DNA of 64,000 nucleotides, taken from positions 4,058-68,057 of the forward strand of contig CAZFLN010000006.1 in the NCBI GenBank assembly GCA_964519905.1, given 5' to 3'. Source of the stretch: an uncultured Pseudomonadales bacterium (GTDB taxonomy: Bacteria; Patescibacteriota; Microgenomatia; UBA1400; UBA1396). A program made the position numbers and the translations under genes. Shown piece after piece: positions 5,892 through 63,064 of this stretch (its first letter is position 1; each line of letters opens with the position of its first letter). The notes under the pieces are model-generated. The model was not told the origin of the DNA, ran no database searches, and saw nothing but the letters and a program-made list of their open reading frames with translations.

Positions 5892-5913
5892 TGTCTGCTG
5901 ATATAATTTATAC

Positions 5914-6393
5914 ATGCACGAAAAAAAACTGAATCTTTACCGCTTTAGTCCCATAGAAAGTGAAGATCAGTTTTTTGAAGCTCTCGAATACATTGTTTCA
6001 GCAGCAGATCAGTTGGCACAAGAAGTTCTTGGAGAATCACTCCCCATCAATACTGTGAAAGTTTTTGCTCATTATTACGATGAGTATAAGTATCTGCTTG
6101 ATCTCGTTTCCAGAATGGGAAATCGTTCGCAGCTGAGCTCAGAGACGAGTTACTATGTTGAGATTGACAAGGAGATTTCAAGACAGGCGATTCAATATCT
6201 TGGAGTGAGGATTGTTGATCCATATCGATTACATGTTGGTTGTGCAGATTATGAGATTCAGAATTACCACGATTTGAAAGATGCTTTTTTGAAAAAAGGC
6301 TCATATGTTCGAAGTATAGAAAATGGAGAGATGCTTGAGCTTTGGCATCCAGACACTGACGTGCTTGGCTATGTTGTTCCACCTTTTGTTTGA
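5914..6393 (+). CDS. hypothetical protein
   Basis: 159-aa ORF; no motif recognised. Confidence 0.4.
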   Translation: MHEKKLNLYRFSPIESEDQFFEALEYIVSAADQLAQEVLGESLPINTVKVFAHYYDEYKYLLDLVSRMGNRSQLSSETSYYVEIDKEISRQAIQYLGVRIVDPYRLHVGCADYEIQNYHDLKDAFLKKGSYVRSIENGEMLELWHPDTDVLGYVVPPFV

Positions 6394-6426
6394 GAGAGAA
6401 TGTTAGGTGATTTGGTGAGGGCACTT

Positions 6427-6700
6427 ACCCAAAGAGTATTTCTCAGGTTTGCTTCACTCCGTTTGCAAACTTATAGTGCACGAACTCTCGGATTTGCATC
6501 AAACCATAGGGTTTCAACCACAAAAAAGGCCGCTTATGCGACCTTTTTTATTGCTGTGAACCACCATTGGGCTGGTTCAAACTTTTTCTCTGATGTTTTC
6601 CAGGCGTTGGAAGACTTCCAAGCCTTCATGCTGAGCCTTGGGGAGGCGTACTCGACCGCTCCGGCTCTAGCTTACTAACTACCCAAACCATAACCCACAC
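6427..6700. repeat. copy 1 of an approximately 270-bp conserved non-coding segment (hairpin plus terminator-like stem with T-run)
   Basis: about 85% identical over the first 100 bp to 13893-13990, with weaker homology continuing to about 6700; internal hairpin aggtttgc...gcaaactt; terminator-like aaaaaaggccgcttatgcgacctttttt at 6522-6549. Confidence 0.6.
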
Positions 6701-6756
6701 CACCTCTGTGAGAAATACCCTTAAAGAGGCGACATGCAATAGTAGGCTAACTCGAT

Positions 6757-8688: not shown

Positions 8689-8810
8689 TTACTAATCTGG
8701 GCAGGTCACCATGAGAGATGTACCAATGAGTATAGCATTTTCGGCAGATATACCAATGACTCAAATTAGATCAAGTCAGCCGTTTTTGAAGCATTCCAAG
8801 AGGTCAAAAA

Positions 8811-11513
8811 TCAGCTTATCTCGACGAAACTTGATATTGGGCCCTTAAATACCACACCCGGCAACTGCTCAAAGTGTTTTTTGCCACACGCGATCTTCAT
8901 GAGCTCAGAAGGTCGTAGTTCTTGGTTTTTACTCTTTGTTTCTGCGACGAAGTAAATCTTGGTCTCGTTTTCTAGTATAAATGCCCAGTCAGGGTTATAT
9001 GAGCCAAGAGGAGTTTCGATTTTGAACCAACGCGGCAGTTTGAAGTAAAATTTTACATCAGGATTGCGCTCCAATTCCCCGGCGAAGTTTCTTTCTGGTT
9101 CGGAGTTGTTATCAATAAGAACATGATCGTAAAGCGTTTTTGTCTGATCTTGCACCTCTACCATGCTATTGAGATAACCCCAAAGCTCTTCGTTCTCAAA
9201 ACGCGCCATTTCCCACGCTTCCGACTCCAATTTTTCGTACTTAATACCCTCTACCATCAACTCATGCAGAACATTGATCAAACGCTTTGAAGCTTGATCT
9301 AAAAACTGTTGAGGATTTTTAAGTATTTTGCCAGCAACTTGAGCAGTATTCAAAATAGTGAGAAGTGTTTGCTTTGTTAATCTCGTGCGAGATTGTAAGT
9401 AACTCAAAACATCGGGCACTAGAACTTGCGCAGCGTTGAGGCGTTTCTCACCAGCACGTCGTACCGCTGAGCTCACCCCCTTTTTGTTCATCTCAATGTT
9501 CACGCTTACGACTCTAATGCGAGGGCTTGTTACTTCAATTGATTGAAGTTCTCTAACAGCCCGGTGAACAAGCTCATCTGTGTCATACTCCACGTTATAG
9601 CGGGTGCGATGTTTGATCTTTTCCCAGAGAGCTTGAAATTGTGGGTCAAGGTTATACCCTTTCTTAAGTTGAACACGTCGTTTTTTCTTGGCATTACTGA
9701 TACGTCCAGAAAAGTCGACGCCACATTCTTCCTGAATCTCGTTCTGTAGACCACGAGCGAAGTCATCATAGTGTTCATTAGCAACAACTGTTAGAACAGC
9801 AATGTTTTGATCGGCAACACGTTCTCCCTGTTGGTTAACTGGCAAACGCAGGCCACGACCAATCTCTTGTCGCTTCTTAATATCAGAGCTTGTTTCATTA
9901 AGAGTACAAATTTGGAAAACATTGGGACTATCCCAACCTTCGCGTAAGGTGGAGTGAGAGAAAATAAACTTAAGCGGTGTAGAGAGCGATAGAAGCCGCT
10001 CTTTATCTCTCATGATTAACTCATAGGTATCATCATCTGCCTTAGTTGTCCCGGTTGTGTCCTTGTAATGGCCACTTTTGTCTCTGGAGAAATAGCCATC
10101 ATGCAACGCACTGATAGAATTGTCTTCTTGGCGTAATGAAGCATACTTTGGATTTTGAATCAGTTCTTGATAAAGTTCCTCGAACCAAACAGCATACTTC
10201 CCGGAAGTTATTGTATTGCCTTGATATTGGCGATAATTGTCTACGCGGTCAATGAAAAAGAGTGAAAGTACTTTAATACCAAGTGGCAACAAAGAGAGTT
10301 CTTTTTCGAGGTGATTGGCAATAGTTTGCTTGATTTGGGTTTTAATCAAATCCTCGGTATAACCACCAGTCACTTGCCCGACATAAATCGTTTGTCCATT
10401 GGAAAAGCGAACATACTCGGAAAGAGTATCAATATCGTCAACCACAAAGCCACGGTATGCCTCTCGTTCTCCAGAAAGACTATATAAGTCGCTCTCTACT
10501 TTCACCGATACTGTCTTTTTTTGTACGCCGGTTGGTGTTTGGACATCTATAGCAAGTTTGGCAGAAACGGTACTTCCTTTGCTGCCTACACTGTGCAATT
10601 CAAGATATGCCTGGTTATAGCTTTCTTCTTGAATGACCGAATCAACCTCAATACGTTTTACGAGACCTAAGTCGTAGGCATCAACCGGAGTAAGTTTGTA
10701 AATAAGATTATAGTTATTGCGATGTGTGGCACTGTAGCGCAGGGTACATAAAGGATTCAGGTTTGAAATAGCTTTTTTAGCTTTCTTGGTCTCCATTGAT
10801 TGGGGTTCATCTACGATCACTATTGGATTGGTAGCTTTAATGTATTCAATTGGAGTACCCCAGTCACTATTTCGGTAAAGAATGTTACCGGAATCTTCAG
10901 AATCACGGATAAACGATTGGATGTTCATCACCATGATTTGTAATGAGTTGGCTTTAGCAAAGTTTTTTGTTTGTACGCGATTTTTTGATTCATAGACGTA
11001 AAAATCATGTTTTGGCCGGTCGTAAATAGTGGCAAAATGCTCATCAGTAATTTCTAAGTTTTTAATCACGCCTTCTTTAATGGCTATGCTCGGAACGACG
11101 ATAATGAATTTTTTGAAGCCATAGGCTTTGTGTAGTTCATAAATTGTACGCAAATATACGTAGGTCTTTCCTGTACCAGTTTCCATTTCAAGCGAGAAGT
11201 TAAGCCCATTCTTTAAACTAATAGAATCTGCTTCTCCCGGGAGCATTGATCCAACAAGTCCAGGAGTAAAAAATCCCTCAGATAAAGGAAGTTTGTACTT
11301 CGTTTGTACTTGTTTGGTGTTATCAAAAATTTGCGAATGTTCAAGAACTAGCTTGTTTGATGTGACCAGTTCAAAAAGATCAGCTTGGCCCGAAGATAAT
11401 TCAATATCATTTTCCTGCGTGCTTTCAGTCAATGGTTGACCAGTAAAGAGTTCTACCACTGAGCTAATGGCATCCAATTGATATTGTTGGTTTGGGTCAA
11501 ACTGTAATTTCAT
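8811..11513 (-). CDS. res: Type III restriction enzyme Res subunit (SF2 helicase plus PD-(D/E)xK nuclease)
   Basis: MKLQFDPNQQYQLDAI N-terminus typical of Type III Res; TGTGKT Walker A; VIVDEPQ motif II; C-terminal endonuclease region. Confidence 0.85.
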   Translation of the reverse strand: MKLQFDPNQQYQLDAISSVVELFTGQPLTESTQENDIELSSGQADLFELVTSNKLVLEHSQIFDNTKQVQTKYKLPLSEGFFTPGLVGSMLPGEADSISLKNGLNFSLEMETGTGKTYVYLRTIYELHKAYGFKKFIIVVPSIAIKEGVIKNLEITDEHFATIYDRPKHDFYVYESKNRVQTKNFAKANSLQIMVMNIQSFIRDSEDSGNILYRNSDWGTPIEYIKATNPIVIVDEPQSMETKKAKKAISNLNPLCTLRYSATHRNNYNLIYKLTPVDAYDLGLVKRIEVDSVIQEESYNQAYLELHSVGSKGSTVSAKLAIDVQTPTGVQKKTVSVKVESDLYSLSGEREAYRGFVVDDIDTLSEYVRFSNGQTIYVGQVTGGYTEDLIKTQIKQTIANHLEKELSLLPLGIKVLSLFFIDRVDNYRQYQGNTITSGKYAVWFEELYQELIQNPKYASLRQEDNSISALHDGYFSRDKSGHYKDTTGTTKADDDTYELIMRDKERLLSLSTPLKFIFSHSTLREGWDSPNVFQICTLNETSSDIKKRQEIGRGLRLPVNQQGERVADQNIAVLTVVANEHYDDFARGLQNEIQEECGVDFSGRISNAKKKRRVQLKKGYNLDPQFQALWEKIKHRTRYNVEYDTDELVHRAVRELQSIEVTSPRIRVVSVNIEMNKKGVSSAVRRAGEKRLNAAQVLVPDVLSYLQSRTRLTKQTLLTILNTAQVAGKILKNPQQFLDQASKRLINVLHELMVEGIKYEKLESEAWEMARFENEELWGYLNSMVEVQDQTKTLYDHVLIDNNSEPERNFAGELERNPDVKFYFKLPRWFKIETPLGSYNPDWAFILENETKIYFVAETKSKNQELRPSELMKIACGKKHFEQLPGVVFKGPISSFVEIS

Positions 11514-11518
11514 ATTTG

Positions 11519-13492
11519 TTACACTACCTTGAAGTCAATATCTGCTCGTTCAAGATTGAGAATAGTGTTTGTTTTTAGATCGTCATTATTCGCAAAAACG
11601 CGTTCTAAAAAGATAACCTTTGCAGGTTTTCCTCGTTCGAGAAAATCGATAAAATCTCTGGTAACTGTCCCTTTCAGGCAAACAACCAACTTATTATTTC
11701 CAACAACGAAATATGTCACGCCGGCTTGCTCTGATCGTTTAACAGGTTCAGTGAGTTCGAGGCCAGATTTAAGTATGAGTTCGTACAAGAGATTGCTCTG
11801 GTTAGCATCTGGGCTGGTGTTTTCTACTGAGAGTTTAAGTTGTTGAGTAAGTTGCATTGGATTAACAACAGATTGATTCCAGACTTCGAAGTTACTCGCT
11901 TTGAGTCTAAAAAACTTGACACCGACCTGAGATGCTATTTTTCTAATTCTTTCAATAGATATCTCAGAAATGGTTCTGTACCCCAAACGAAAAGCTTCTG
12001 AGTTTTCATCTATTTTTTCTGGAAGTTGAACCATAATAAAATTTCTATCTTGGCCATCTTTTTCATTTAGTTCTATTAAGGCGTGTGCCGTTGTGGCAGA
12101 CCCAGCAAAGAAGTCCATAACTAAGTCATTCTTACCCGATCCGATACTAATCAGATAGCTGATAAGGTCTTTAGGTTTTGGATAATCAAAAATAATTCCG
12201 TTTTTCTCCAACTCAGAGCGCATTTTCTCTGTTGTTCCAAAGTTCCTTAATACGGACAGGATATTGCGAGCTTTTTCCCTCTCTCTTCTATAATAAAGAA
12301 CACCTTTCTCAGAAAGAAAGAATGACAATCTATCACCGTTATCCATTATCGGGTTACAATTGTTTTCAATAAATTGTTTTAGTTTGTTTACATTAGCCCA
12401 ACCACTAAACAATTTGCACGGCGCAAGTAACTTGCTATTTTTTACAGTGAGTTTACCAATTCTTACTGGGTATGATGCTGACCACTTTTCAGTAATTTGC
12501 CTTGAAATATAGCCAAGCTTCTTCACATCACTGAAATAACCCTCAGGCAGATCAGAGCTTTCTAAACTAATTTCATCTATTGAACATGGGAAACCTATTG
12601 GTAACTCAATCTCGCTTGGTGGATTGGCGGGACCATTTTTTGTAATTGAATTTTCAGCATATCCCTTCCACAAATTACTATCTTTTCTTGTATTAGGATC
12701 AACAACTTGTTCCAATTTAGCCCGGTTGCTATTCTTAGCATAAAGAATGATGTACTCATGGTTTATTTTAACGTCCAGTTGATTGTCAGTATGTCCGTCA
12801 GTGTTCCAGACAAACTGTGTAATAAAGTTTTCTTCCCCAAATATCTCGTCCATTATTATTCTTAGATTGTGGACTTCATGATCATCCATGCTAATAAATA
12901 CCAGTCCGTCTTGTCGAAGCAAATTTCTGGCCAAAAATAATCGGGGATACATCATATTCAGCCAGTCAGAGTGGTAATGCCCGTTATCGCGAGTGTTACG
13001 TCGTAGGGCAGTGTCTTTTAAGAGATCGCCGTTGTCATTGCGTTGGCCAGATTCAGCTTCATAGGTTGTTTTATCTTGCTTGAAATTGTCATTATAAATA
13101 AAATCATTACCGGTGTTATATGGGGGATCAATATAAATCATCTTAATCTTGCCATAATAAGAACGCTGCAATATACGCAAAACTTCTAGGTTGTCACCTT
13201 CTATGAAAAGGTTTTTTGTGGTATCAAAGTTGACTGATTCCTGGGGAAGAGGGGCTAAAGTAGCACTGGTAGTTTTTTGAATTTCCCGGAAAACATTAGA
13301 CTTTCCCGCCCAATTCAATCCATATCTTTCTGTGCCACTGCTTACTTGTTCTCCCAGGGTTTGCTTGAGCTTATCCGGATCAATTTTACCCTCACTGAAT
13401 ACTTCTGGGAATTGTTCCTTCAGTTGTTGGAGTAATTCCTCTTGAGGATTAATTGATTTACCATTCATCTTTGGAGTGTTCATATCACTCAT
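11519..13492 (-). CDS. mod: Type III R-M Mod subunit (N6-adenine DNA methyltransferase)
   Basis: IYIDPPYNTGNDF (DPPY) catalytic motif and conserved EQFPEVF N-terminal region; ORF extends to 13525, start chosen at MSDMNTPK. Confidence 0.85.
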   Translation of the reverse strand: MSDMNTPKMNGKSINPQEELLQQLKEQFPEVFSEGKIDPDKLKQTLGEQVSSGTERYGLNWAGKSNVFREIQKTTSATLAPLPQESVNFDTTKNLFIEGDNLEVLRILQRSYYGKIKMIYIDPPYNTGNDFIYNDNFKQDKTTYEAESGQRNDNGDLLKDTALRRNTRDNGHYHSDWLNMMYPRLFLARNLLRQDGLVFISMDDHEVHNLRIIMDEIFGEENFITQFVWNTDGHTDNQLDVKINHEYIILYAKNSNRAKLEQVVDPNTRKDSNLWKGYAENSITKNGPANPPSEIELPIGFPCSIDEISLESSDLPEGYFSDVKKLGYISRQITEKWSASYPVRIGKLTVKNSKLLAPCKLFSGWANVNKLKQFIENNCNPIMDNGDRLSFFLSEKGVLYYRREREKARNILSVLRNFGTTEKMRSELEKNGIIFDYPKPKDLISYLISIGSGKNDLVMDFFAGSATTAHALIELNEKDGQDRNFIMVQLPEKIDENSEAFRLGYRTISEISIERIRKIASQVGVKFFRLKASNFEVWNQSVVNPMQLTQQLKLSVENTSPDANQSNLLYELILKSGLELTEPVKRSEQAGVTYFVVGNNKLVVCLKGTVTRDFIDFLERGKPAKVIFLERVFANNDDLKTNTILNLERADIDFKVV

Positions 13493-13591
13493 TCTAACAA
13501 CGAACGGCCTGACGTGAAAGCGCAATATGTGTCAAAGTGATATACTTCATAACTTCTTCAAAGCTTTTTAAGCTATAAGTGCAGTTTTTCA

Positions 13592-13614: not shown

Positions 13615-13740
13615 GGTTGTAGACATAATCAAGATTTAATCATTATTTCCTTTTTAAGTAAGCGCTTGTTTGAGATATAACGAGCGGATAAGTTAGTTAT
13701 GACCTAATCCCAGTTTTTCGAAACCGGGTATGGTCAAAAA

Positions 13741-13783
13741 ACCTGAAAGATAAACAACCCTCGCTGAGGAGTATCTTTCAGGT
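13741..13783. other. 12-bp perfect inverted repeat (acctgaaagata...tatctttcaggt) with 19-nt loop
   Basis: seen directly; lies between the mod gene and the att repeat. Confidence 0.4.
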
Positions 13784-13873
13784 CATGTCAGGAAACTGGC
13801 ATGCGTGGCAATACGGTACTCGGCGGGGGCTTTTTGCCACTCCCAAACGAGTCGCCTCGAACCTTACGATACT

Positions 13874-13892
13874 TGTGACCCCACGGAGATTC
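13874..13892. repeat. attL: 19-bp direct repeat identical to the tRNA-Glu 3' end
   Basis: tgtgaccccacggagattc is identical to 24009-24027; flanking bases differ. Confidence 0.8.
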
Positions 13893-14145
13893 ACCCCAAG
13901 AGTATTTCTCAGGTTTGCTTCACTCCGTTTGCAAACTTGAAGTGCACGAACTCGCGACTTCGTATCAAACCATGAGATTTCAGCTACAAAAATAGTCGCT
14001 CAGGCGACTTTTTTTGTACCTGTGACCCAAAGGGTTTGGGATTGGAACCAGATTCTTCGTGATCTGGTCGACCTGTTCGACACCTTCCGCCAAGACGTAA
14101 TGCTACCTGATGTTAAGTACTCCGTCTAGGGAATAGAACCGGTGT
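13893..14145. repeat. copy 2 of the approximately 270-bp conserved non-coding segment with intrinsic terminator
   Basis: homologous to 6427-6700; perfect terminator agtcgc-tcag-gcgact plus T7 at 13984-14006. Confidence 0.6.
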
Positions 14146-14149
14146 AATA

Positions 14150-17100
14150 CTATCCCCATTTAGTAGCATGGAGCTCTGCCTCTTGATCTTCTCTGACGGC
14201 TTCACGGGCATAAGAATCAGCGATAGCTTTCAGAATCGAAGCTGTTATTGGCCAGTCAGGTGCTACATTTTCGCTCATCTCCTGATATTTTTCGGCAAGA
14301 GATCTTTCTTGAGTTCCACCATCATACGGACCACGTGTGGTAACGCCTCGGTTATTGTAAACGTAGCTTTGGATGTGCCGATTAATTACGCTGTTGTCGA
14401 GTTCTTCTATGATCTTTCTTGCCGCTGTGTGTGGCCAGCAACCATCAGTATCATATGGCGTCTTTGCTAGCACGCTTGCTAATTCCAAGTCGCAACCGGT
14501 TGTGAGACTCTGCTCGGCACAAGATTTTCTGGCAGTTTCAACCCAAGTAGATAGCTCCTTCGCGTCAAGAGCCCCTTCTTCATTTGTTCCAGGAAATCCT
14601 TCCCAAGAATCAAGTACGTTTTTTGCATTTCTCGCCAAGTTACTGGATTGATCAGAATTAAGACCCGCATGTTTCGGGTTGGCCTTCCTATCGTCCCTTT
14701 TGTAAACCATGCCGACAAGGTCACAAAAGAATGCCGGATCTTTTTCGAGCAGCTTGTGAATCGAGAAGGATGTTCTTTCGTTGTCCCTCATTCCTCGGAA
14801 AAGCGACGCGCAAGGCCATTCCAGCTTAGCAATCTCTTCATCCGTGAGTTCTTTGCGCTCTTGCAGCTGCCTGAAAACGTTGGATAGGTAATATTCGGTC
14901 ATGCTGTCTGCATGGCGATCTTCAGAGGGAATGGCAAGTAAATCGAGAATAATTTGTCGGAGCAGATTGCTTGGCAATGAAACAACATGATCGCCGGCGA
15001 TTTCCAATGCTGCCTGAGGTCGTTTGGCGAGAAGAAACTTTTCAGCGGCAATTTGCGCGTTCTCGTTCGAGTGACCTGGCGTATAACCTCTGGCATGTTT
15101 CCAGTATTCTGCTTCAAGATCAATTCCAGCTTTTTCGACTTTCAACCAAGTATCTGGCCCTTCAGGGAGTCCAAGATATAGTTGCGCTGCGATCTCTGGT
15201 GTGTAAATGCCCTCATCTTTCAGTTTTTGGATAGCCGCTTCAACCCAAGCCACACCTTCTTTTTCTGTTCTTCCCCAAGAATAGGAAGAGATAAGCAGAT
15301 GGTTTTTTGCGTGTTTGGCAAAGAAGAAGAGTACTCGATCGTCCTCTTCTTCATTCTTGATGGCTTTTCCCAGCGCTTGTCCCAAAACTCCAACGTATGA
15401 AATACCTGAAGAAAACTTGACGATCTCTTCAAGTGGTACTTTGTCTAGTACTTCTCTGGCAGCTTTTCCTCTTTGTACCGCAACTTCTTTGTCACCATCG
15501 GTCCGATCTCTACGACTCACCTCAGGCAAGTGTGGCCACGGATTATCTAGCAACCAACCAACTCGATCGAGTACATACTCTGGAGTAAATTTGGTGAGTA
15601 GCTTTTTGAGCGGCATGAGGTTCTTCCGCTCGGGCTTTTCGCCGTAACTACTAAGCCAATTCATTGCTTCCCGAATATGTGAACAGAGGAGTTTTACTTC
15701 ATCAGGTGAGAGTTGGTCTTTGTCCATTTGGGTGAGAGTATTCATGAGAGCGGTTTGAATGTAATCTGGAAGGCGAGTAAATTCGTCCATAGCGTCAAGG
15801 ATGTTTACTCTTGTGCACGCCAAACTCTCAAGTCTATTGACCAATTCTTTCTGATATTCCTGTGGATTTGTTTCCGGATCAAAGCCAGACCTCAAGATGC
15901 CGTAGTCCCGCCATCTGAAACGATACGCTTCAGTGAAGTGGCCCCCTGAATGATAAGACTTAGTAAAATTCCAAACGAGCTTTGCATCTTTTGATATGAG
16001 CCTGTCAATCTCTCGTATTCTTTCTGGTGCCGCTGCATAAGTTTGAGGCCAGATGGGCATGAAGATATCTGTCAAACTGTTTGCCGGTCGATTGCTGTAT
16101 CTTCCCCCTGTGTCAATTGCGGCCATTCCTCTGAGAATTTCCACTGCACGAGAGAAATATGTAGAACTCCATGCAAGCGCTTCTAGTGCCCAAAGCAACC
16201 CACTGTGATTGCAGTCTCCAAACGGGCCGCCGTCATCGTCTTTCATCAAGTCAGAAAAAACTTGAGGATGCTTGGCAAGTTGTTTGCGTACCACTTCCAG
16301 AAAAACGTCGGGCGCTGCTTCTGCTAACAGTGGGGAAATATCCTTGAGTGAGGCCCAATGCTCCATTGTGGTCGCGGCCTCCAAAACCTCAGCTACGGTT
16401 TGATTGATCGTATCTTGAAGAGAAACGAGATTTGTCGCTCGGTCTCCCAATACTGAAACCATTGCCAGAGAGCCACAAAGTCCTTCCCTCAGCCAGTCGG
16501 AATGTAGTGGGGCTTTACCATAAACGGCTGCAGCCCATCGCTGATCAGCGGGTAGCTCATATTTAGGATCTTTTTTCAGCAAGACATCCTTCACGACCTG
16601 CTGATACCTCTGAAATATCGCCTCGTCGACATAGCGAGCAATGAGAAACCATGTGTCAATCGGTGACTTCAATACCCAAACATTTCCAACCTTGAGCAAT
16701 GGCGGATCTGCCACTGTTAACAGGTTCCCCAGCTCTGAAAGATAATCCGTATACTTTTTACTAGCGATATATTCAACGATTTGTTGGTCTCCATCTTTCT
16801 TTTCATTCCATGCACCAATGAAAAGAACGGGTAAAAGCAAGTGAGTGTTTTGAGGATTCACCCAAGGTGGATCTGTTATAGCTGGTGAAGGCGACATACG
16901 ACGTCTCAAAACTGGTAGACTCCTGCCGGAATCTCTGGAAAGTTTTCGGGCCTCAACCTCTCCAACACCGATTTTTTTAAGATTCTCCTGAATAGTGCCA
17001 ATAAGTGGTCGAGGAAGGCGCCCAGCATCTCGCGTACTTGAAACGTTTGTTCCTGTACCCAGGAAGACATGATGGCCCTTTCTTACGGCCAAACCTACTA

Positions 17101-17932
17101 AATCATTGCACTCGATCGTTACGGCCAAGATGAGCGAGGTTTGGTATGTATCAAGAATATGTCGTAGATCAGCGGGGTTCTCGACGTAAAGACTTTTGGA
17201 GAGTGAGCGCAATCTCTCGTCATCTGGTAGTCTGGAGAAAGAACTGTATAGAAAAGCAAACGGTTCGTCAGCAGAATCACCTTGAAGCGACAGAATAGCA
17301 GGTGGCTTGTTGAGCCAGCCATGAACAATCTCTACATGATTGTCTCTTCCACCCAGCACAACTTCAGCCGAAAGTGGTGGGTTTGTTGATTCCGACCATT
17401 CTTCCCAAAAGCTCTCCAAGCTCCGTATTCCGCCTGCGCTCGCCTTTCCCAGGCGTTTGGCAAGCCATAAACCCACGGCAGGCGCCTGATCGAGCCAGAG
17501 TGCAAGGTCATCGGCATCGATAGCCCTTACTGATTTCCAATGGTTGGATGCAGCCTTGCTGGTTGCCCACTCATGTCGTTTTGGCCAACGTCGTGGCGTT
17601 ACAAAAACGAAAGATGTATCTTTGGGTGTCAGAGCCAACGAGTCAGCGACCCTTTTCGTGTAATCATCGTCAGCTTTTTTCTTGGGCGACTCCTTTGTGC
17701 CCATTTCCCAACCAGAAACGCCATCAGGGAGATAGGGGGATGATGATGCAATGTTCAACCTGCCGTCCCATCCGGGAGTTGCCACACTGTCTTGTTCAGG
17801 GAAAGAAACTTCACTAACAGAATTAGCTGTTGCCAAAACAAGGCGTCGTAGGAGTTGGGGCAAAAAAGAGGCGCAATCTCTTTGATTACTTTCACTCCAA
17901 GACTTGATATCACCGGCACTTATCCATTGCAT
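14150..17932 (-). CDS. 1260-aa protein of unknown function (island cargo)
   Basis: long uninterrupted ORF; no Walker A/B, no HxH, no obvious catalytic signature; weak D...ExxxK pattern (GWDGRL...WEMGTK) in the first 90 aa. Confidence 0.6.
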   Translation of the reverse strand: MQWISAGDIKSWSESNQRDCASFLPQLLRRLVLATANSVSEVSFPEQDSVATPGWDGRLNIASSSPYLPDGVSGWEMGTKESPKKKADDDYTKRVADSLALTPKDTSFVFVTPRRWPKRHEWATSKAASNHWKSVRAIDADDLALWLDQAPAVGLWLAKRLGKASAGGIRSLESFWEEWSESTNPPLSAEVVLGGRDNHVEIVHGWLNKPPAILSLQGDSADEPFAFLYSSFSRLPDDERLRSLSKSLYVENPADLRHILDTYQTSLILAVTIECNDLVGLAVRKGHHVFLGTGTNVSSTRDAGRLPRPLIGTIQENLKKIGVGEVEARKLSRDSGRSLPVLRRRMSPSPAITDPPWVNPQNTHLLLPVLFIGAWNEKKDGDQQIVEYIASKKYTDYLSELGNLLTVADPPLLKVGNVWVLKSPIDTWFLIARYVDEAIFQRYQQVVKDVLLKKDPKYELPADQRWAAAVYGKAPLHSDWLREGLCGSLAMVSVLGDRATNLVSLQDTINQTVAEVLEAATTMEHWASLKDISPLLAEAAPDVFLEVVRKQLAKHPQVFSDLMKDDDGGPFGDCNHSGLLWALEALAWSSTYFSRAVEILRGMAAIDTGGRYSNRPANSLTDIFMPIWPQTYAAAPERIREIDRLISKDAKLVWNFTKSYHSGGHFTEAYRFRWRDYGILRSGFDPETNPQEYQKELVNRLESLACTRVNILDAMDEFTRLPDYIQTALMNTLTQMDKDQLSPDEVKLLCSHIREAMNWLSSYGEKPERKNLMPLKKLLTKFTPEYVLDRVGWLLDNPWPHLPEVSRRDRTDGDKEVAVQRGKAAREVLDKVPLEEIVKFSSGISYVGVLGQALGKAIKNEEEDDRVLFFFAKHAKNHLLISSYSWGRTEKEGVAWVEAAIQKLKDEGIYTPEIAAQLYLGLPEGPDTWLKVEKAGIDLEAEYWKHARGYTPGHSNENAQIAAEKFLLAKRPQAALEIAGDHVVSLPSNLLRQIILDLLAIPSEDRHADSMTEYYLSNVFRQLQERKELTDEEIAKLEWPCASLFRGMRDNERTSFSIHKLLEKDPAFFCDLVGMVYKRDDRKANPKHAGLNSDQSSNLARNAKNVLDSWEGFPGTNEEGALDAKELSTWVETARKSCAEQSLTTGCDLELASVLAKTPYDTDGCWPHTAARKIIEELDNSVINRHIQSYVYNNRGVTTRGPYDGGTQERSLAEKYQEMSENVAPDWPITASILKAIADSYAREAVREDQEAELHATKWG

Positions 17933-18003
17933 ACGGCATCATTCTAGTCCCAATTTTCCCCGAAGTGAATCAGTAATGTTGTGCATCAAAACTGTGTAAA
18001 ATC

Positions 18004-18381
18004 TTGAGTATGCGCGTAAAACGAGGGAGACCATCCCTTCTCACGGAATCTGTCCAAAATCAATTAAAACAAGCGTTTCTGGTCGGCGCAACCGACGACG
18101 AAGCTTGTTTAGTGGTGGGAATTGCCCCAAGCACACTCTATAAATTCCAGGAGAAAAACCCGTCATTTTCGGAGCAAAAACGACTATGGAAGCGTTCTCC
18201 AGTTTTTCGCGCCAAGGCGACGATCGTCCGCAATCTCGACAATGTCGATGTGGCCAAGTGGTACTTGGAACGTAGAGCCAAAGATGAGTTTTCGACAAAA
18301 CACGAGTTGGAAGGGATTTCCGACAATACACCAATCCAAGTAATATTTAGGGGAAAAGATGAAGACAAGGCAAACGTTTAG
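18004..18381 (+). CDS. HTH protein resembling phage terminase small subunit
   Basis: KRGRPSLLTE...GATDDEACLVVGIAPSTLYKFQEKNPSFSEQ matches the conserved N-terminal pattern of P27-type TerS and related HTH proteins. Confidence 0.5.
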   Translation: MSMRVKRGRPSLLTESVQNQLKQAFLVGATDDEACLVVGIAPSTLYKFQEKNPSFSEQKRLWKRSPVFRAKATIVRNLDNVDVAKWYLERRAKDEFSTKHELEGISDNTPIQVIFRGKDEDKANV

Positions 18382-18635
18382 AAATTCACAAGATCATTGA
18401 GCGTTTTGCCCAAGGCCTTGGCGATCTTCCACAAGACAAAAACGGTTGGATGATACTTCCCGGCTTCAAGATGAGCGACGTATGCGGAATGAAGCTTGGC
18501 TCTACCGCCCAGCTCTTCCTGTGAGATACCTTTGCTTTTCCGAGCGTCACGAATATTACCAGCTAATCTTTGGGTGAATTCTTTACGGACTTTGGTGTTG
18601 TCTCCGTCTGTTTCAGGGAGATTTATCGTATTCAT
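18378..18635 (-). CDS. XRE-family HTH transcriptional regulator
   Basis: KGISQEELGGRAKLHSAYVAHLEAGKYHPTVFVLWKIAKALGKTLNDL is a classic Cro/C1-type HTH; start taken at MNTINLP (ORF extends to 18767). Confidence 0.7.
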   Translation of the reverse strand: MNTINLPETDGDNTKVRKEFTQRLAGNIRDARKSKGISQEELGGRAKLHSAYVAHLEAGKYHPTVFVLWKIAKALGKTLNDLVNF

Positions 18636-18708
18636 TTCAACAATTATTTTCCTGGTGATTAGAGGCTTACGCCATGGCGTAGTCATCAAGTTAGTGATAT
18701 GATCTCTG

Positions 18709-19590
18709 GTGATGAAGAAGACCAAAAAAGCATTCGCCCACGGTGTGAATTGGAAATCTCGGCCCATTCAGTTACGGGCAGGTTTCTTAATTCTTGTCCT
18801 CTCGCTCATTCTCTACAAAGCAGTTCCCGGAGTGGTTCGTGCCTACGACGTTCAAAAGGTAAACCAAGCCATTCAGGAAGCCGAGACATTGGCAAAAGCA
18901 GGACAAACCGAGGAAGCTGTATTGGTACTCCAATCTACGTCCTCCCGATACATGACCCAAGAACAGGCGGAGAAAATCACCTCTCAGTTTGGTGAGTTGG
19001 CAAACCCACCGGCCAAAGGTATGAGCTTCGATGATTTCGATCAAATGTTGAAAGATCGAGGAGAACCAGGAATCTTAGGCTCACCTGCGCCAAAACCGTC
19101 ACAGGTACCAAAGCAAATACCAACGCCCTTACCCACAGCGCTTCCAACCGTAAACGCCAATCCACAAGTGCGCTGCTATTACGACAGTCGCTGCGGTGGT
19201 ACGAAGATCACAACCAAAGACGAATGCCTGAATACTACCTGTTGCTATGACGGTTCAACTTGGAACATTAAATCGAAGACGGATTGCCAGAAACAATCGG
19301 ACGAGGCGGCTCAAAAACAACTCGACGCCTGGAATACATCGCAATCCCAGATGCAGGCCGAAATTGAAGCCCTACAGAAGGCCACGGAAACCATTACTCA
19401 ACAAAACGCTCAAACCCAAGCTGAGCTTCTCGAGGCATGTCGACAGCAAGCACAAAAAACCTATGCGCAACCGGCACAAGGGAGTCAAACTTCCACAACT
19501 GGTTACGTTGTTGGTGAATCACCGGAGCAGCGACAAAAGCTTAATCAAGCTATGCAGCGTTGCCTGGATCTGTATGGAGGAGGACAATGA
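18709..19590 (+). CDS. membrane-anchored, Cys-rich, Q-rich secreted protein
   Basis: N-terminal TM (FLILVLSLILY); Pro-rich linker; 8 Cys in 60 aa; divergent from the XRE gene. Confidence 0.45.
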   Translation: MMKKTKKAFAHGVNWKSRPIQLRAGFLILVLSLILYKAVPGVVRAYDVQKVNQAIQEAETLAKAGQTEEAVLVLQSTSSRYMTQEQAEKITSQFGELANPPAKGMSFDDFDQMLKDRGEPGILGSPAPKPSQVPKQIPTPLPTALPTVNANPQVRCYYDSRCGGTKITTKDECLNTTCCYDGSTWNIKSKTDCQKQSDEAAQKQLDAWNTSQSQMQAEIEALQKATETITQQNAQTQAELLEACRQQAQKTYAQPAQGSQTSTTGYVVGESPEQRQKLNQAMQRCLDLYGGGQ

Positions 19591-19826
19591 AAAAGTCGCA
19601 CCTCCTATTCATCGCAGTTGCTCTGTTGGCGTATTATCTGGGATATCGTTCAGGAATCGGCAACCAGGTGGCTCGATATGGCGATACTGGGTTGCCAAAG
19701 AATTGCCGGGCGCTAATTGCCACCAACATCAGTGGTTTTAAGTATAGCCAGTACACCGCAGAGGAAGCGCTTTACTCTATCGACCGTAACTGTGGTCCAG
19801 CTGGGCTTATTTGGAATGAACGATGA
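19587..19826 (+). CDS. small membrane/secreted protein
   Basis: GGAGGAGG RBS then ATG overlapping the upstream stop (ATGA); signal-like MKKSHLLFIAVALLAYYLG. Confidence 0.4.
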   Translation: MKKSHLLFIAVALLAYYLGYRSGIGNQVARYGDTGLPKNCRALIATNISGFKYSQYTAEEALYSIDRNCGPAGLIWNER

Positions 19827-19831
19827 TGCAT

Positions 19832-20596
19832 TCAAGCTATTTTGCCACCGACTTCTTTCCACAATTCTTGTAAACCATTTTTTACTTCTTCTGTCGTTTC
19901 CACTTCATTTGACAAGAGTAAGGCAATTTTCAAACATGCTCCATAGGAAACCATGATGCCCATATGCAAATCCAACTCTGCATAACCGTCGAGTGTGATT
20001 TGTGCCAGGTGGCCAAGAATATCACTGGGTGATGTGTGATTTTTTCTATTACCAGCAATATATATCTTAAAAAGGGTTTGCATTTCGGTTTTAGGGATGA
20101 CTTTCTCCTGAACAAGCCAAGCTACTACTTGTTCCACGCTTTGGCCAGCCCAATTATGGCGGCCATTTTTCAACTTAGCCGGAATGGCATCATATGAGTC
20201 ATTGATCCTTTTTATTTCCTCTGGTTCGATTTCTACACCTGCTGACAGTAAAAAATCCATGTCTTCTTTTTGTTCTACTGCATCAAATTGGATGAATTGC
20301 CGTGAATACGCTTCTTTTCCCTTCTTTTCAATATAAAACATATAGACCATATCCTCTAAAATCCTTCTTGATAGGTCGAGAATAGAGCCGCTGTACACAG
20401 TGCGCAGAGAGGGATCTTCTTCTGCCAGATTGGCCAAAGTGATACTGGTCTGGAGAGTTAAATAATCCTTCCGAAATACCCCCTCAAGGACTCTTCCAAA
20501 GAGGGATTTATACGTGTTTGGTCCTGTTGCCAAGGGGTAGCTAATATCAAGTAGCTGGAGGGATTTTTTACGAAAATCGACTTGTGATTTTTCCAT
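19832..20596 (-). CDS. hypothetical protein
   Basis: 254-aa ORF; no motif recognised. Confidence 0.45.
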   Translation of the reverse strand: MEKSQVDFRKKSLQLLDISYPLATGPNTYKSLFGRVLEGVFRKDYLTLQTSITLANLAEEDPSLRTVYSGSILDLSRRILEDMVYMFYIEKKGKEAYSRQFIQFDAVEQKEDMDFLLSAGVEIEPEEIKRINDSYDAIPAKLKNGRHNWAGQSVEQVVAWLVQEKVIPKTEMQTLFKIYIAGNRKNHTSPSDILGHLAQITLDGYAELDLHMGIMVSYGACLKIALLLSNEVETTEEVKNGLQELWKEVGGKIA

Positions 20597-20640
20597 TGAG
20601 AGGATTATACTCCGGCGTACGGACAGTCAGGTTCAGATAT

Positions 20641-22128
20641 ATGGCAAATTATTGGAGCAACGAGCTTTTAGGAAGGTATGACCCGCAAGATGGTTGGCTT
20701 GGGATTGATTATCGACGGCACTTTCTAAATCCACACCAAACAATGATGACTTACATCCATGAACAAGCCCACGGCATACTTTGCAACGGTACTGAATATG
20801 GGCAGGCAACGAAGACGCTTCTACGATTTCTTCCGCATGCAACAGCAATGTCTGAGGAGCAACGCGCCGCCATCTTTAAGAAACTTCATGATTCACAGTT
20901 TTATGTTCAGGAGGCAGCAGCAACTCTTGCTCCAATTTTTGGGCTGAGAGATGCCAAAGGTCCGGCGGTTGCACGCAAATGGGCCAAAGACAATTTGCCA
21001 GATGATTACTACAACCGTGTTGAGGGGCTTTTTTTTGCGTTGGAATTTGGAGCAAGATACAGAGAACTATTCCTACAACAATCATCGCATTTAGCGATGC
21101 ATACGAAGATTCGTAAAGATGTTGTTGCTTACGATCTACTAAGAAACCCTGAACAATTTATCGACTATTTGTCCCAACCAGATAATATTCCTAGTGACAG
21201 GTTTCAAAAACTTACACAGGCATTTTGGGCTAAGCCCCATCTACCAACTCGCTCAGATGAAGAAGTAGCAAAGCATGCCAACCTACCCCTTTTCGAAATC
21301 TTGACCAAAGATGAAGTCGCAAACTTCCTCAACTATGTTGCAGAGTTTTGTGGACTACCAGTTCGAACTGATGCAACACGCATAAAAGATCCATTGACAC
21401 CAGAAGCTCACGTAAAAGAACTGGCAGAAAACGTTCTTATCGCGAATATGAATTTCAACTTACCTGACCGTGCTATGTGGCTTAAACAAACAGATGATTT
21501 GAAATTTATTTCTGACAAAGTTGATGCGGTTATTATCAACAGAGTCGATCCTTCATCCAACCTCGCTGATAATTTCAAGATTGTTATGGGGCGAGAAGCT
21601 GACCTTGGAATTATTACATTCCAAAAAACGGGCGAAGTATATTTAACAGGTTTGTCTGAAATGGAAGCATCAACAATCCTTAAGCAAGAGTTAAAAAATG
21701 CGACACTTATCACCAAGTGGGGGTTATATGAGCCCGGAAATGAAAACGTTTCTTTCTTCCCAAGTATCCGTCGACCAGATGTAGTTATTTACAACACACT
21801 TGGCGACATGCGCGTGTCAATGCAAAAGTATTTGGAGCAACATGACTGTGTTTGCTTCAATGCCCAAGCTTCTCCAGGAAGCCCGATACATACTTTTGTG
21901 ATCGTAGATCAGAAAGGTACTCTTCATATGTTGAACGCCATGGGAGTTCAACCGATAAACTCCTTTTTGTCTGATAACAAAGAACATCTGCATGTTGTTC
22001 AGCCAGATCAATCAACCGTTAATCCAGCCCACTACAACAATGTCCTTTCTGTTTGGAATGACTTGCCATGGGATGTCGATTGGTATGCCTCCATGCTTGA
22101 TGGTGAAAATGTAATTAATCGCACCTAA
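20641..22128 (+). CDS. HExxH-motif protein (possible metallopeptidase)
   Basis: YIHEQAHGI near the N-terminus; start at MANYWSN within ORF 20584..22128. Confidence 0.5.
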   Translation: MANYWSNELLGRYDPQDGWLGIDYRRHFLNPHQTMMTYIHEQAHGILCNGTEYGQATKTLLRFLPHATAMSEEQRAAIFKKLHDSQFYVQEAAATLAPIFGLRDAKGPAVARKWAKDNLPDDYYNRVEGLFFALEFGARYRELFLQQSSHLAMHTKIRKDVVAYDLLRNPEQFIDYLSQPDNIPSDRFQKLTQAFWAKPHLPTRSDEEVAKHANLPLFEILTKDEVANFLNYVAEFCGLPVRTDATRIKDPLTPEAHVKELAENVLIANMNFNLPDRAMWLKQTDDLKFISDKVDAVIINRVDPSSNLADNFKIVMGREADLGIITFQKTGEVYLTGLSEMEASTILKQELKNATLITKWGLYEPGNENVSFFPSIRRPDVVIYNTLGDMRVSMQKYLEQHDCVCFNAQASPGSPIHTFVIVDQKGTLHMLNAMGVQPINSFLSDNKEHLHVVQPDQSTVNPAHYNNVLSVWNDLPWDVDWYASMLDGENVINRT

Positions 22129-22288
22129 GTTACACTTGTAAGCAATTTTGGTAACAAAATCCTGATTCAGACCCCATTTATTCCAGCAGTTTTTGCGATA
22201 ATTTCTTGTGTTGACAGATCAATCAATTTGCTCGTTTTCATTCCAATTCACACACGGTGTAAATTGACGTATATATCAATCTTTTCTG

Positions 22289-22318
22289 TTGACACCAATG
22301 GTATGCGGATGGTTATAT
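22289..22318 (+). promoter_or_regulatory. sigma70-like promoter (TTGACA-18-TTATAT) for the small-ORF/recombinase operon
   Basis: ttgaca 22289-22294, 18-nt spacer, ttatat 22313-22318. Confidence 0.45.
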
Positions 22319-22337
22319 TCGGACTAGGAAATCTACC

Positions 22338-22496
22338 GTGACCATCGCAAAAGCAAGAAAATTACTGGGAAAATCGGCGGAGCTGCTGACTGATGAACAG
22401 GTGCAGCTCAAAATTGACGTGGCTGAGCAGCTGAAGGAGTTGTTCTTTGATTTTTTGCTCAAGAGTTTAAGACAGAAAAAGGCATACCAATCTTGA
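22338..22496 (+). CDS. 52-aa small protein (GTG start) upstream of the serine recombinase; homolog of 62859..63044
   Basis: AGGAAA 6 nt upstream of GTG; IAKARKLLGKSAELLTDEQVQLKIDVAEQLKEL aligns with IEKAQAILRKSKHSFSDDQTERLIDVMEKFSSAI. Confidence 0.4.
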   Translation: MTIAKARKLLGKSAELLTDEQVQLKIDVAEQLKELFFDFLLKSLRQKKAYQS

Positions 22497-22503
22497 GGAA
22501 ACT

Positions 22504-24048
22504 ATGAAATACTTGGGTCCGATGCGAAAAAGAGTTGTTATATACATCCGAGTATCAGACCCTGGTCAAATCGATAACAATAGCCTTGAAACTCAAGAGA
22601 AATACTGTCGTAAAAAAGCCAGTGAAATGGGCGCTGAAGTTGTTGAGATATTTCGAGAGGAAGGTGTCTCTGCAAAGACAATTGACAAAAGGCCGGAACT
22701 GAGGCGACTTCTACAGTTTTGTAGCCTCAAAAAGAATGATATTCAAGCAGTTATTGTGTATAGACTGGACAGGTGGTCGAGAAATGTAACCGATGCATTG
22801 CAGGCAAAGTTTCTCCTTGCCAAGTATGGTGTTCAGCTTATTTCGGCAACTGAAGGCATAACAGACGATCCTCAAGGCGAATTTCTTGGAACGATCACTT
22901 TCGCTATGGCTCAGCTCGACAATCAACTCAAGGCCGCACGCGTCTCAGATAACATGAAGACTATGTTTCGAAATGGTTTGTGGCCATGGAAGGTCCCACC
23001 TGGTTATAAACGTCCATTCAAAACCAAAGAGGAAAGCAAAGGTAAACCAGCCATAATCGACCCCGACATCGGTCCAATTCTTCATGAGCTGTTTGTTGAG
23101 GCATCCAAAGGGATTTTTTCCAGGAAACAACTTGCTGAAAAGACAAATTTACTTGGATACGCGGATTTCAAAGGGAGGAAAATCAATGAAAAGGTAATCG
23201 TTGACATTCTTTCTGACACCTTTTACCACGGGCTTATGCATGCGCCGAGATGGGATGAGTACGCTGTCGGTTTGCATGAACCCCTGATTGATGAACTCAC
23301 TTGGAAAAAGGCGTATGCTTCAGTAATTAAGAAGCGAAAATATATGTATCAAGATACTGTGGATTACCCACTCAAGGGCACGATCAAGTGTGAGCTTTGT
23401 GACCACTTCATGACCTCGAGCAATCCCAGAGGGCGGACCAAGAACTACAAGCATTACGAATGTGGGAATCCAAAATGCCGTCGGTCACGTATCCTGGCGT
23501 CTTCAGCACATGAGCAGTTTGCATCCATTCTTTCCCGGGTCAAACCCGCTCCAGACGTCATGGTGTTGTTTACGGATATGGTATTTTCCGAATGGGATTC
23601 AGTGGTGAGTACCGTTGCGACACTCACTCAAACATTGGACAAGAGAATTGCCGACCAAAAAAAAGAACTCGATAGGATCAGTAGGTCTTGTGACCGAGGT
23701 ATATATACAGAGGCTGAGGCCAAGGAAAAAGCTGATGAAGTACGTCGAGAAATCACTATCTTGGAGGTTGAAAAAACTGACTCAGTGATAGCTGGATACG
23801 ATGCCAAGATCGTCAAGGCGTTTACCGAAAGATTCCTTGAACACTTTGACGAACTATGGAAACAACTTGATCTGCCCAAGCAGCAAGCTCTCCAGGTGAA
23901 AATATTTCCCAACGGTATCTTGTGTGACAAAAACAAGAATATTCGAACCGCAGAAATGAGCGAATGCTTCCAGCTAATTGAGGCTCTTGGAAGCGAAAAT
24001 GTCGAAAATGTGACCCCACGGAGATTCGAACTCCGGTTACCAGGATGA
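22504..24048 (+). CDS. large serine recombinase (integrase)
   Basis: VVIYIRVSDPGQ resolvase catalytic Ser region plus recombinase domain plus Cys-rich zinc-ribbon (CELCDHF...CGNPKC) plus coiled coil; last 38 nt overlap the tRNA-Glu gene. Confidence 0.85.
   Translation: MKYLGPMRKRVVIYIRVSDPGQIDNNSLETQEKYCRKKASEMGAEVVEIFREEGVSAKTIDKRPELRRLLQFCSLKKNDIQAVIVYRLDRWSRNVTDALQAKFLLAKYGVQLISATEGITDDPQGEFLGTITFAMAQLDNQLKAARVSDNMKTMFRNGLWPWKVPPGYKRPFKTKEESKGKPAIIDPDIGPILHELFVEASKGIFSRKQLAEKTNLLGYADFKGRKINEKVIVDILSDTFYHGLMHAPRWDEYAVGLHEPLIDELTWKKAYASVIKKRKYMYQDTVDYPLKGTIKCELCDHFMTSSNPRGRTKNYKHYECGNPKCRRSRILASSAHEQFASILSRVKPAPDVMVLFTDMVFSEWDSVVSTVATLTQTLDKRIADQKKELDRISRSCDRGIYTEAEAKEKADEVRREITILEVEKTDSVIAGYDAKIVKAFTERFLEHFDELWKQLDLPKQQALQVKIFPNGILCDKNKNIRTAEMSECFQLIEALGSENVENVTPRRFELRLPG
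24009..24027. repeat. attR: 19-bp direct repeat (tRNA-Glu 3' end)
   Basis: identical to 13874-13892. Confidence 0.8.
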
Positions 24049-24083
24049 GAACCTGGCGTCCTAGGCCTCTAGACGATGGGGCC
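24011..24083 (-). tRNA. tRNA-Glu (anticodon CTC)
   Basis: reverse complement folds as GGCCCCA acceptor, GTCTAGAGGCCTAGGAC D-arm, CCAGG-TTCTCAT-CCTGG anticodon arm, CGGAG-TTCGAAT-CTCCG T-arm, discriminator A; CCA not encoded. Confidence 0.85.
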
Positions 24084-58877: not shown

Positions 58878-58881
58878 GTAT

Positions 58882-59247: not shown

Positions 59248-59294
59248 TGATTGAAATAGCCCTGTTGTGGTATATCAGATAAAATGAATACCAG

Positions 59295-63044: not shown

Positions 63045-63064
63045 CTATTATCTGAAGGTAAGAA

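Follow-up and report, generated by a model that had tools for sequence, protein, structure and literature searches.

An Avs8-like protein family without a P-loop, represented at the edge of a tRNA-Glu island

The stretch of DNA analysed here, referred to below as the window, comprises 64,000 nucleotides of contig CAZFLN010000006.1 (assembly GCA_964519905.1), and this report concerns one large gene within it. An open reading frame (ORF) at 14150..17932 on the minus strand runs from an ATG to a stop codon and encodes 1260 residues. It is the biggest complete ORF of the window, as an earlier note on this DNA had observed, with runners-up of 969 and 900 residues. Homologues start at the same MKWI.A.DIK residues, which supports the start codon. 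A promoter-like site lies directly upstream at 17941..17969 (-), recognised by a consensus match only. The protein had no match in Pfam or NCBIfam, and sequence searches with the single sequence and with a profile retrieved no PDB match for the 1260-residue core. Pfam scans found no helix-turn-helix (HTH) within it, and no DNA-recognition domain of the SRA, YTH, TRD or similar kind was found in the family protein. In PHROGs, it matches phrog_18693 (function unknown) over its full length, with an E-value of 2.8e-159. From the translation, this match and the profile comparisons described below, we annotate it as a putative Avs8-like sensor-nuclease without a P-loop.

The name PD-lambda-4A is reportedly associated with Vassallo and colleagues in 2022. 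Avs8 is the new name of PD-lambda-4, and in EcAvs8A a nuclease of the Mrr type is joined to a STAND NTPase and a helical sensor (bioRxiv 10.1101/2025.07.02.662641). EcAvs8A by itself is enough for protection from lambda and several BASEL phages, with Avs8B dispensable. It directly binds monomeric HK97-fold capsid proteins (Kd 14-127 nM), the capsid-bound protein degrades double-stranded DNA in a reaction requiring Mg2+ and ATP, and mutations in the nuclease active site abolish defence (bioRxiv 10.1101/2025.07.02.662641). EcAvs8A (WP_000963924.1) was recovered from an E. coli genome via the construct sequence in the supplement of that preprint, and the gene downstream of it carries the Avs8B accession given there.

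PADLOC, which the earlier note had proposed searching, returned a single match for the 1260-residue protein, PD-Lambda-4_A (16.7 bits, E = 2.7e-4). It is position-matched and collinear, residues 573-649 aligning with positions 590-666 of the 1283-position profile, but weak and below the usual thresholds. BLASTP of the window protein against EcAvs8A gave two weak collinear segments (E = 8e-5 and 2e-4), and hhalign against close EcAvs8A relatives gave a probability of 95.2% (E = 2.7e-8) for residues 510-801 against 529-825. With the Avs8 profile widened to 48 sequences by the Rhizobium clade and more distant clades, the family profile aligned to it over 1090 columns, residues 22-1258 against 17-1281, at 99.6% and E = 5.1e-24; the reversed Avs8 profile, as a control, scored 22 (E = 0.32). 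Taken by region, the E-values were 1.1e-10 for the nuclease, 3.3e-13 for the sensor-proximal part, 5.5e-4 for the far C-terminus, where the match is collinear, and 0.08 for the nucleotide-binding domain (NBD), and the regional values thus mark the NBD as the most diverged part. These profile alignments identify the protein as a distant end-to-end relative of Avs8A/PD-lambda-4A. The two have similar lengths (1260 against 1283 residues) and the same order of parts, an Mrr-like PD-(D/E)xK nuclease, an NBD-like fold, a helical and winged-helix region and a long helical sensor, while their pairwise identity is about 20% or less. The earlier note had proposed a novel system without recognisable catalytic motifs; the profile and structure comparisons that it recommended instead reveal a full-length remote relative of Avs8A, a characterised defence protein, with a STAND-like fold and a PD-(D/E)xK nuclease domain, so the system is not novel in that sense.

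AlphaFold2 models were built from 90-sequence alignments in two overlapping segments, residues 1-600 (predicted local distance difference test, pLDDT, 92.5; predicted template modelling score, pTM, 0.89) and residues 520-1260 (pLDDT 90.6). In these models, a PD-(D/E)xK nuclease is followed by a nucleotide-binding fold of the AAA+/STAND-like type, then by helical and winged-helix domains and finally by an alpha-solenoid of ~800 residues, and the protein thus has the STAND order of NBD, helical domain and winged helix, followed by repeats. The Mrr/FokI-like nuclease domain comprises residues 1-160 (17453..17932, -). The nucleotide-binding fold (17033..17452, -) lies between it and a helical plus winged-helix-like domain at the HD1-WHD position of STAND proteins (residues 301-430; 16643..17032, -), in which the model has helices at 311-372 and 380-403 and strands at 374-376 and 412-421. 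The remainder, residues 431-1260 (14153..16642, -), is an all-alpha solenoid, presumably the sensor, and its first ~300 residues are the stretch most similar to Avs8A. Pfam models for AAA, NACHT and NB-ARC had no match in 31 family members, even at E <= 1.

When the N-terminal 600 residues were compared with all PDB chains by Foldseek, the top matches were Avs3 (8dgc, E = 3.4e-7), Avs4 (8dgf, E = 1.3e-6) and Avs5 (9nc9, E = 4.4e-5), followed by a STAND-TPR protein, NLRP3 and Apaf-1. The longest structural alignments, covering 250-296 residues and continuing across the helical domain and the winged helix (residues ~311-421), were to the STAND proteins CED-4, ZAR1, WRR4A, EfAvs5 and DARK. Avs3 and Avs4 (SeAvs3 and EcAvs4), both matched with a probability of 1.00, share with the family protein the logic of a nuclease effector, a STAND module and a helical sensor. 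Template modelling scores to them are low (0.24-0.29) because the domain arrangements differ, no sequence similarity to them is detectable, and the AVAST models of PADLOC do not match the family protein. Avs3 and Avs4 also differ in being ATP-dependent, with an intact P-loop, and in their sensors and triggers (terminase and portal). According to what Gao and colleagues are said to have reported in 2022, Avs3 and Avs4 are activated by binding of a phage protein and form tetramers.

Structure comparisons show the nuclease domain to be similar to those that carry out cleavage in MspJI, AspBHI and FokI. The PD-(D/E)xK core fold is present, with D56 at the start of strand 2, E76 in strand 3 and the lysine displaced to K86 on the following helix, and each of these three residues is conserved in 90 of the 90 aligned sequences. 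A weak D...ExxxK pattern had been pointed out within the first 90 residues; its acidic residues stand, D56 and E76 being invariant, whereas the conserved lysine is K86 and not K80, a position that is lysine in only 13 of the 90. In the alignment with Avs8, D56 corresponds to D55 and E76 to Q78, and the K80 of Avs8 falls on G78. The motif of the family is accordingly D...E-x-G plus K86, in contrast to D...Q-x-K in Avs8.

The absence of a P-loop, which the earlier note had listed among the missing signatures, is real and family-wide: all 162 family proteins examined lack a Walker A motif (GxxxxGK[ST]) at the NBD position. It marks a STAND module that has degenerated rather than one that is missing. 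In Avs8-type sequences, by contrast, G241, G244, G246, K247 and S/T248 of Walker A are present in 48 of 48 and the Walker B aspartate in 46; Walker A is likewise kept in 118 of 120 Rhizobium-clade hits and by all full-length EcAvs8A relatives of at least 68% identity. The Avs8 Walker B (ILDNCP or VVDEC) pairs with LILA--VT or IIAAPxEC in the family. Where EcAvs8A has its Walker A, GLSGVGKT, the window protein aligns with an acidic loop, GDSADEPF, at codons 218-225 (17258..17281, -). Its G-D-S-x-D-E pattern recurs across the alignment, with G218 in 73 of 90 sequences, an acidic residue at 219 and at 222 in 87 each and E223 in all 90. Other conserved residues lie nearby, namely H287 (89/90), H288 (83/90), C275 (71/90) and position 274 (61 E and 11 D). 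The P-loop site thus holds a different conserved acidic motif and therefore has not simply decayed; judged from this conservation, the acidic loop is under strong purifying selection. The protein most likely belongs to a divergent branch of the Avs8/PD-lambda-4A superfamily that lost its P-loop.

As precedent for a STAND immune sensor that lacks an ATP site, we found only KpAvs8 of Klebsiella pneumoniae, whose naturally degenerate Walker motifs are reported solely in figure legends (Extended Data Fig. 11 and Supplementary Fig. 16 of Nature 2026, PMC13581612; bioRxiv 10.64898/2026.01.04.697583). KpAvs8 is included in the models of Avs proteins bound to their triggers and in the plaque-assay panel (PMC13581612), and an Avs8 without a P-loop thus has a published precedent. 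Like the family protein, KpAvs8 is of the Avs8 type and by nature devoid of the conserved residues for nucleotide binding, a comparison that goes by its published description and not by its sequence. Unlike the present analysis, PMC13581612 describes neither a pan-bacterial P-loop-less clade nor a conserved acidic motif in the place of Walker A.

A word-index search returned 378 relatives among 8,000 scored candidates, nearly all of them 1255-1265 residues long, and an exhaustive search with residues 351-1260 returned 5,476 clusters at 50% identity (E <= 1e-3), 2,572 of which had E <= 1e-30. At least 593 species-representative genomes have a relative. The family occurs in nearly all bacterial phyla, including Proteobacteria, Bacteroidota, Actinobacteria, Chloroflexi, Acidobacteria, Cyanobacteria, Firmicutes, Verrucomicrobia, Planctomycetes, Chlamydiae and groups of the Candidate Phyla Radiation (CPR), and across phyla its conservation is uniform over the full length, with very few indels. 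Twenty-four plasmid records carry a member. A phage origin was rejected, as 2.9 million viral contigs yielded merely seven loci and phage records one; members are mainly cargo of chromosomal islands and plasmids.

Neighbourhoods were sampled at 77 genome loci, with up to 10 kb of flank on each side where the contig allowed. No gene was conserved beside the family member at these loci or in ORF clustering over 80 loci. Immediate neighbours are mixed: AbiEi/AbiEii (7-8 loci, in one subclade only), Type I specificity subunits, Type II restriction enzymes, the MADS gene mad5, RloB, YgjP, integrases and resolvases. An Avs8B-like gene, which accompanies EcAvs8A, was not found at any locus examined, and no Avs8-type gene lay beside a family member at the 77 genome loci or in the window. 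The earlier note's description of a single-protein module holds, apart from a small HTH gene described below, and in this the family resembles EcAvs8A, which acts as a single gene. The comparison of neighbourhoods that the note had suggested showed contexts that are variable, mobile and defence-rich rather than core, and mobile and defence islands are a setting shared with Avs8.

Tandem arrangements with Avs8 were seen on Rhizobium plasmids. On pRgalIE4872c of Rhizobium gallicum (L092), an HTH-fused P-loop-less member of 1356 residues (4835-8905) is followed 54 nt downstream, on the same strand, by a canonical Avs8-like gene (8959-12801, 1280 residues) with intact GASGLGKS and VVDEC. The two genes share their island with AbiEi/AbiEii and restriction endonucleases, the family copy being placed between AbiE and the restriction genes. 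Matches to the family and to EcAvs8A in tblastn are adjacent in the same way on NZ_CP022669.1 and NZ_CP006879.1, making three Rhizobium plasmids in total. The tandem may represent a paired-receptor arrangement.

Genuine variants of the architecture are few. A 1187-residue relative on the conjugative plasmid pSBAL11702 of Shewanella baltica OS117 (L083, 3152-6715) shares residues ~290-1187 with the family and has a different N-terminus of ~290 residues (DD...QVK, no Pfam match); it directly follows Abi_2 and SieB superinfection-exclusion genes. P0353 carries an N-terminus of ~400 residues, starting with a hydrophobic segment, in place of the nuclease, and P0386 an added C-terminal AIG2-like/gamma-glutamyl cyclotransferase domain. 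P0341 has an added N-terminal extension of ~330 residues. On the plasmid pBTX_57 of Buttiauxella sp. (L082, 1561-6661), the family gene is annotated only as fragments of 106 and 922 residues, with a group II intron reverse transcriptase/maturase just upstream, which suggests disruption by a group II intron; we rejected this partial match as a bridging form, the copy being interrupted. Effector swapping, as a reading of the short representatives, was also rejected, several of them being N-terminally truncated fragments.

Upstream of the large gene, separated from it by 445 nt and on the same strand, lies an 85-residue XRE-type HTH gene (18378..18635, -; Pfam HTH_3, E = 4e-14), whose true start is M45 of a 129-residue ORF. 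A terminator-like hairpin between the two genes (18162..18184, -; consensus match only) suggests that they are on separate transcripts. The HTH gene is 95% identical to the one at the equivalent position of a related locus, L091, while the large genes of the two loci are 86% identical, and in PADLOC it matches capH and restriction-modification control-protein models. It is probably the regulator of the module. In 25 of the 77 family members at genome loci, an HTH is instead fused to the N-terminus as an extension of ~95 residues, with at least three types (XRE-like, HigA-like and MerR/excisionase-like), and about a quarter of the representatives listed from the exhaustive search show the same N-terminal offset. 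RefSeq labels fused members 'HTH transcriptional regulator' or 'HigA family addiction module antitoxin' because of the added HTH, which in some family members is all that Pfam sees; contrary to the label, the HTH is an add-on to a core of ~1260 residues. Upstream of most unfused members, which make up about two thirds of those in the sampled loci, no recognisable HTH gene was found, and the HTH is therefore an optional regulator and not a core part. We rejected the HTH as a universal partner, as most ORFs upstream of unfused members look spurious. A phmmer search with the window HTH did not retrieve the fused HTH domains. Among distant Avs8-type proteins with an intact Walker A, P0493-P0506 also have an N-terminal HTH (PF15731 of the MqsA-antitoxin type, HTH_31). 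N-terminal HTH fusions are therefore recurrent in the whole Avs8 superfamily, beyond the P-loop-less branch, and occur in some clades of both groups.

The genomic setting is that of an island at a tRNA gene. A 19-bp exact direct repeat, TGTGACCCCACGGAGATTC, is present at 13874-13892, as an outer att-like copy found by repeat search, and at 24009-24027, in the 3' end of a predicted tRNA-Glu(CUC) gene (24011-24083, -). An 8-bp copy of the start of the repeat, TGTGACCC, lies at 14021..14028, where homology to the related island L091 stops, and is likely the island junction adjoining the large ORF. A bidirectional terminator-like hairpin (13994..14009) stands 3' of the large ORF and outside the 8-bp repeat. 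By DNA comparison, L091, the locus of the 86%-identical homologue, shares a backbone covering window positions 14022-14140, 14150-19586 and 22180-24019, and the mobile unit is therefore ~10 kb. The shared backbone consists of the large gene, the 85-residue HTH gene, a ~300-residue ORF of unknown function and, nearest the tRNA, a large serine recombinase (22504..24048, +; Pfam Resolvase E = 6.5e-31, Recombinase and Zn_ribbon_recom weaker at E = 3e-4 each). The recombinase accompanies the large ORF in L091 (87% DNA identity) and in L001 (50% amino acid identity), where a 75%-identical homologue, the related recombinase and a tRNA-Glu stand together. The earlier note's placement of the ORF immediately inside attL is upheld, its stop codon lying 121-258 nt from the tRNA-end repeats, and the repeats and the L091 comparison bear out its view of the gene as accessory cargo at the att-proximal end of the island.

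About 38 nt of the recombinase gene overlap the 3' end of tRNA-Glu, which lies on the opposite strand, so the last codons of the recombinase fall in the att core. Positions 19590-22180 (~19.6-22.2 kb) are missing from the otherwise collinear L091 island and are thus extra variable cargo inside the island of the window; they hold an uncharacterised DUF5677 protein (19832-20596, -; Pfam) and an uncharacterised 514-residue ORF without a match (20584-22128, +; ORF call). Just outside the island lies a second variable block, 6757-13525, with an OLD/AriA/Gabija-like AAA_15 ATPase (6757-8688) and a Type III Res (8811-11513) and Mod (11519-13525) pair. It is bracketed by a 137-nt direct repeat (83% identity) with a terminator-like hairpin, at 6427-6563 and 13893-14029. 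These repeats, together with the 19-bp tRNA-end copy at 13874-13892, suggest nested or tandem insertions at a tRNA-Glu hotspot. A LOOT RNA (Rfam RF03000; 77.8 bits against a gathering threshold of 46.4) is found at 13701-13815 (+), with the Type III mod gene on one side and the att-like repeat on the other. Housekeeping genes occupy the flanks on both sides (below 6.4 kb and above 24 kb), with an aminotransferase, an SDR-family dehydrogenase, TrmD and RNase P RNA. From 55 kb on (55000-64000), where a 969-residue ORF begins (55109-58018), the G+C content drops from ~0.46 to ~0.36-0.40, and this stretch may be another horizontally acquired segment.

We favour, with moderate confidence, the reading of the protein as an Avs-type single-chain sensor-nuclease. 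By analogy with EcAvs8A, the C-terminal alpha-solenoid of ~800 residues would bind a conserved phage protein, which for Avs8 is the monomeric HK97-fold major capsid protein. Binding would free the receptor from autoinhibition and drive oligomerisation through the NBD-like, helical and winged-helix module; the N-terminal PD-(D/E)xK nuclease domains would thereby be gathered, and the assembled nucleases would degrade DNA and abort the infection. Unlike that of EcAvs8A, the switch could not use ATP, the Walker A and B residues being absent family-wide, and would operate nucleotide-free. The XRE-type HTH gene would most likely repress or tune expression. We infer from these comparisons that the protein defends, cuts DNA and oligomerises, and likewise its trigger and what the HTH does; that the trigger is a capsid protein, as it is for EcAvs8A, we consider rather doubtful. 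The evidence as a whole points to anti-phage defence, the surroundings included: the island stands next to a Type III restriction-modification system and an OLD/Gabija-like ATPase, and homologues lie beside AbiE, restriction enzymes, Abi_2 and SieB. The modular make-up of the family, with its several types of HTH fusion and the alternative N-termini of the Shewanella variant and P0353, and the precedent of KpAvs8 also speak for this reading. A bolder extension, which we regard as possible though less probable than not, is that the acidic loop, E274/C275 and H287/H288 form a new site in the old ATP pocket, for a metal or another ligand or as a mimic of the nucleotide-bound state. The family would then be a nucleotide-free class of STAND-derived receptor, its solenoid responding to a trigger other than the capsid protein of Avs8, and perhaps paired with canonical Avs8 in some genomes.

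Several points weigh against the sensor-nuclease reading. For every member of the P-loop-less branch, a defence role would be argued from homology and context, and the enrichment of defence genes in the neighbourhoods is a rough count and not a statistical test. PADLOC leaves the protein unclassified at its usual thresholds, no stretch passing on its own, and the NBD region, compared by itself, shows no significant similarity to Avs8 (E = 0.08). EcAvs8A needs ATP for activation of its DNase; in a relative that lacks the nucleotide site, the mechanism may be another, or there may be no switch at all. The motif lysine of Avs8 (D...QxK) is a glycine here (G78, in 82 of 90), and catalysis hinges on K86 standing in for the canonical lysine, a putative role that we offer as a conjecture. 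Across phyla, the sensor shows even conservation from end to end and few indels, which is less variation than one might expect of a receptor in an arms race.

The ATP requirement of EcAvs8A also bears on a different explanation, in which the protein is a decayed or regulatory paralogue, acting as a decoy, sensor, helper partner (cf. paired plant nucleotide-binding leucine-rich repeat receptors, NLRs) or inhibitor of a canonical Avs8-type protein: since EcAvs8A needs ATP, a copy without a P-loop might not switch on alone. The three Rhizobium plasmids with directly adjacent matches to the family and to EcAvs8A fit such a partnership, as does the HTH-fused member 54 nt upstream of an intact canonical gene in R. 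gallicum. As no Avs8-type gene neighbours the family member at the 77 loci or in the window, however, the partner would have to be elsewhere or absent. The invariance of D56, E76 and K86 (90 of 90) and the purifying selection on the acidic loop argue for an active, self-contained enzyme rather than a helper, and for KpAvs8, whose motifs are also degenerate, a capsid-protein model and defence assays are reported. We consider the paralogue explanation improbable.

The HTH genes and fusions raise another possibility: an addiction (toxin-antitoxin-like) module serving to stabilise islands and plasmids, in which the large protein would supply the toxin, its nuclease, and the HTH would act as antitoxin and autorepressor, without any phage sensing. 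The RefSeq names of fused members, the existence of HigA-, XRE- and MerR/excisionase-type fusions, the higher conservation of the HTH gene (95%) than of the large gene (86%) between the window and L091, and the frequency of the family on plasmids and islands would all suit such a module. The unfused members without a recognisable upstream HTH gene, about two thirds of those in the sampled loci, do not. Moreover, a toxin would have no obvious need for a conserved NBD-WHD module of ~270 residues and a solenoid of ~800, the receptor to which the protein is homologous from end to end binds a phage protein through its solenoid, and HTH regulators are also common beside genuine defence genes, in keeping with the capH and control-protein matches of the window HTH. 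We regard a toxin as quite unlikely. Slightly less likely still is a DNA-directed, restriction-like enzyme, in which the solenoid and pseudo-NBD would recognise a feature of DNA, for instance modified or foreign DNA, instead of a phage protein, and the N-terminal domain would cut in the manner of Type IV enzymes or MspJI. Although the nuclease domain is similar to the MspJI, AspBHI and FokI cleavage domains, the gene lies near a Type III restriction-modification system and DNA-binding HTH domains are fused to some members, the searches for SRA, YTH, TRD or similar domains found none, and the whole protein, solenoid included, is homologous to Avs8A, for which direct protein sensing is demonstrated.

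The accepted view of STAND/NLR-type receptors, whether bacterial, plant or animal, is that of switches driven by a nucleotide. The Avs/STAND kind, specifically Avs8, is known already, as is a degenerate NTPase in one Avs8 homologue, KpAvs8. We found no description of what the sequences here indicate, a very large pan-bacterial branch in which loss of the P-loop appears universal, a conserved acidic motif stands in its place and the nuclease motif is altered, with KpAvs8 placed relative to it by description only. No model of the family exists in Pfam, NCBIfam or PADLOC and RefSeq mislabels its fused members; censuses of defence systems therefore miss it at present. Across thousands of clusters, the ATP site has been swapped for another conserved motif while the nuclease and sensor stay under strong selection. 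If the family defends against phage, it would be a natural system for learning how an NLR-like receptor oligomerises and fires without a nucleotide.

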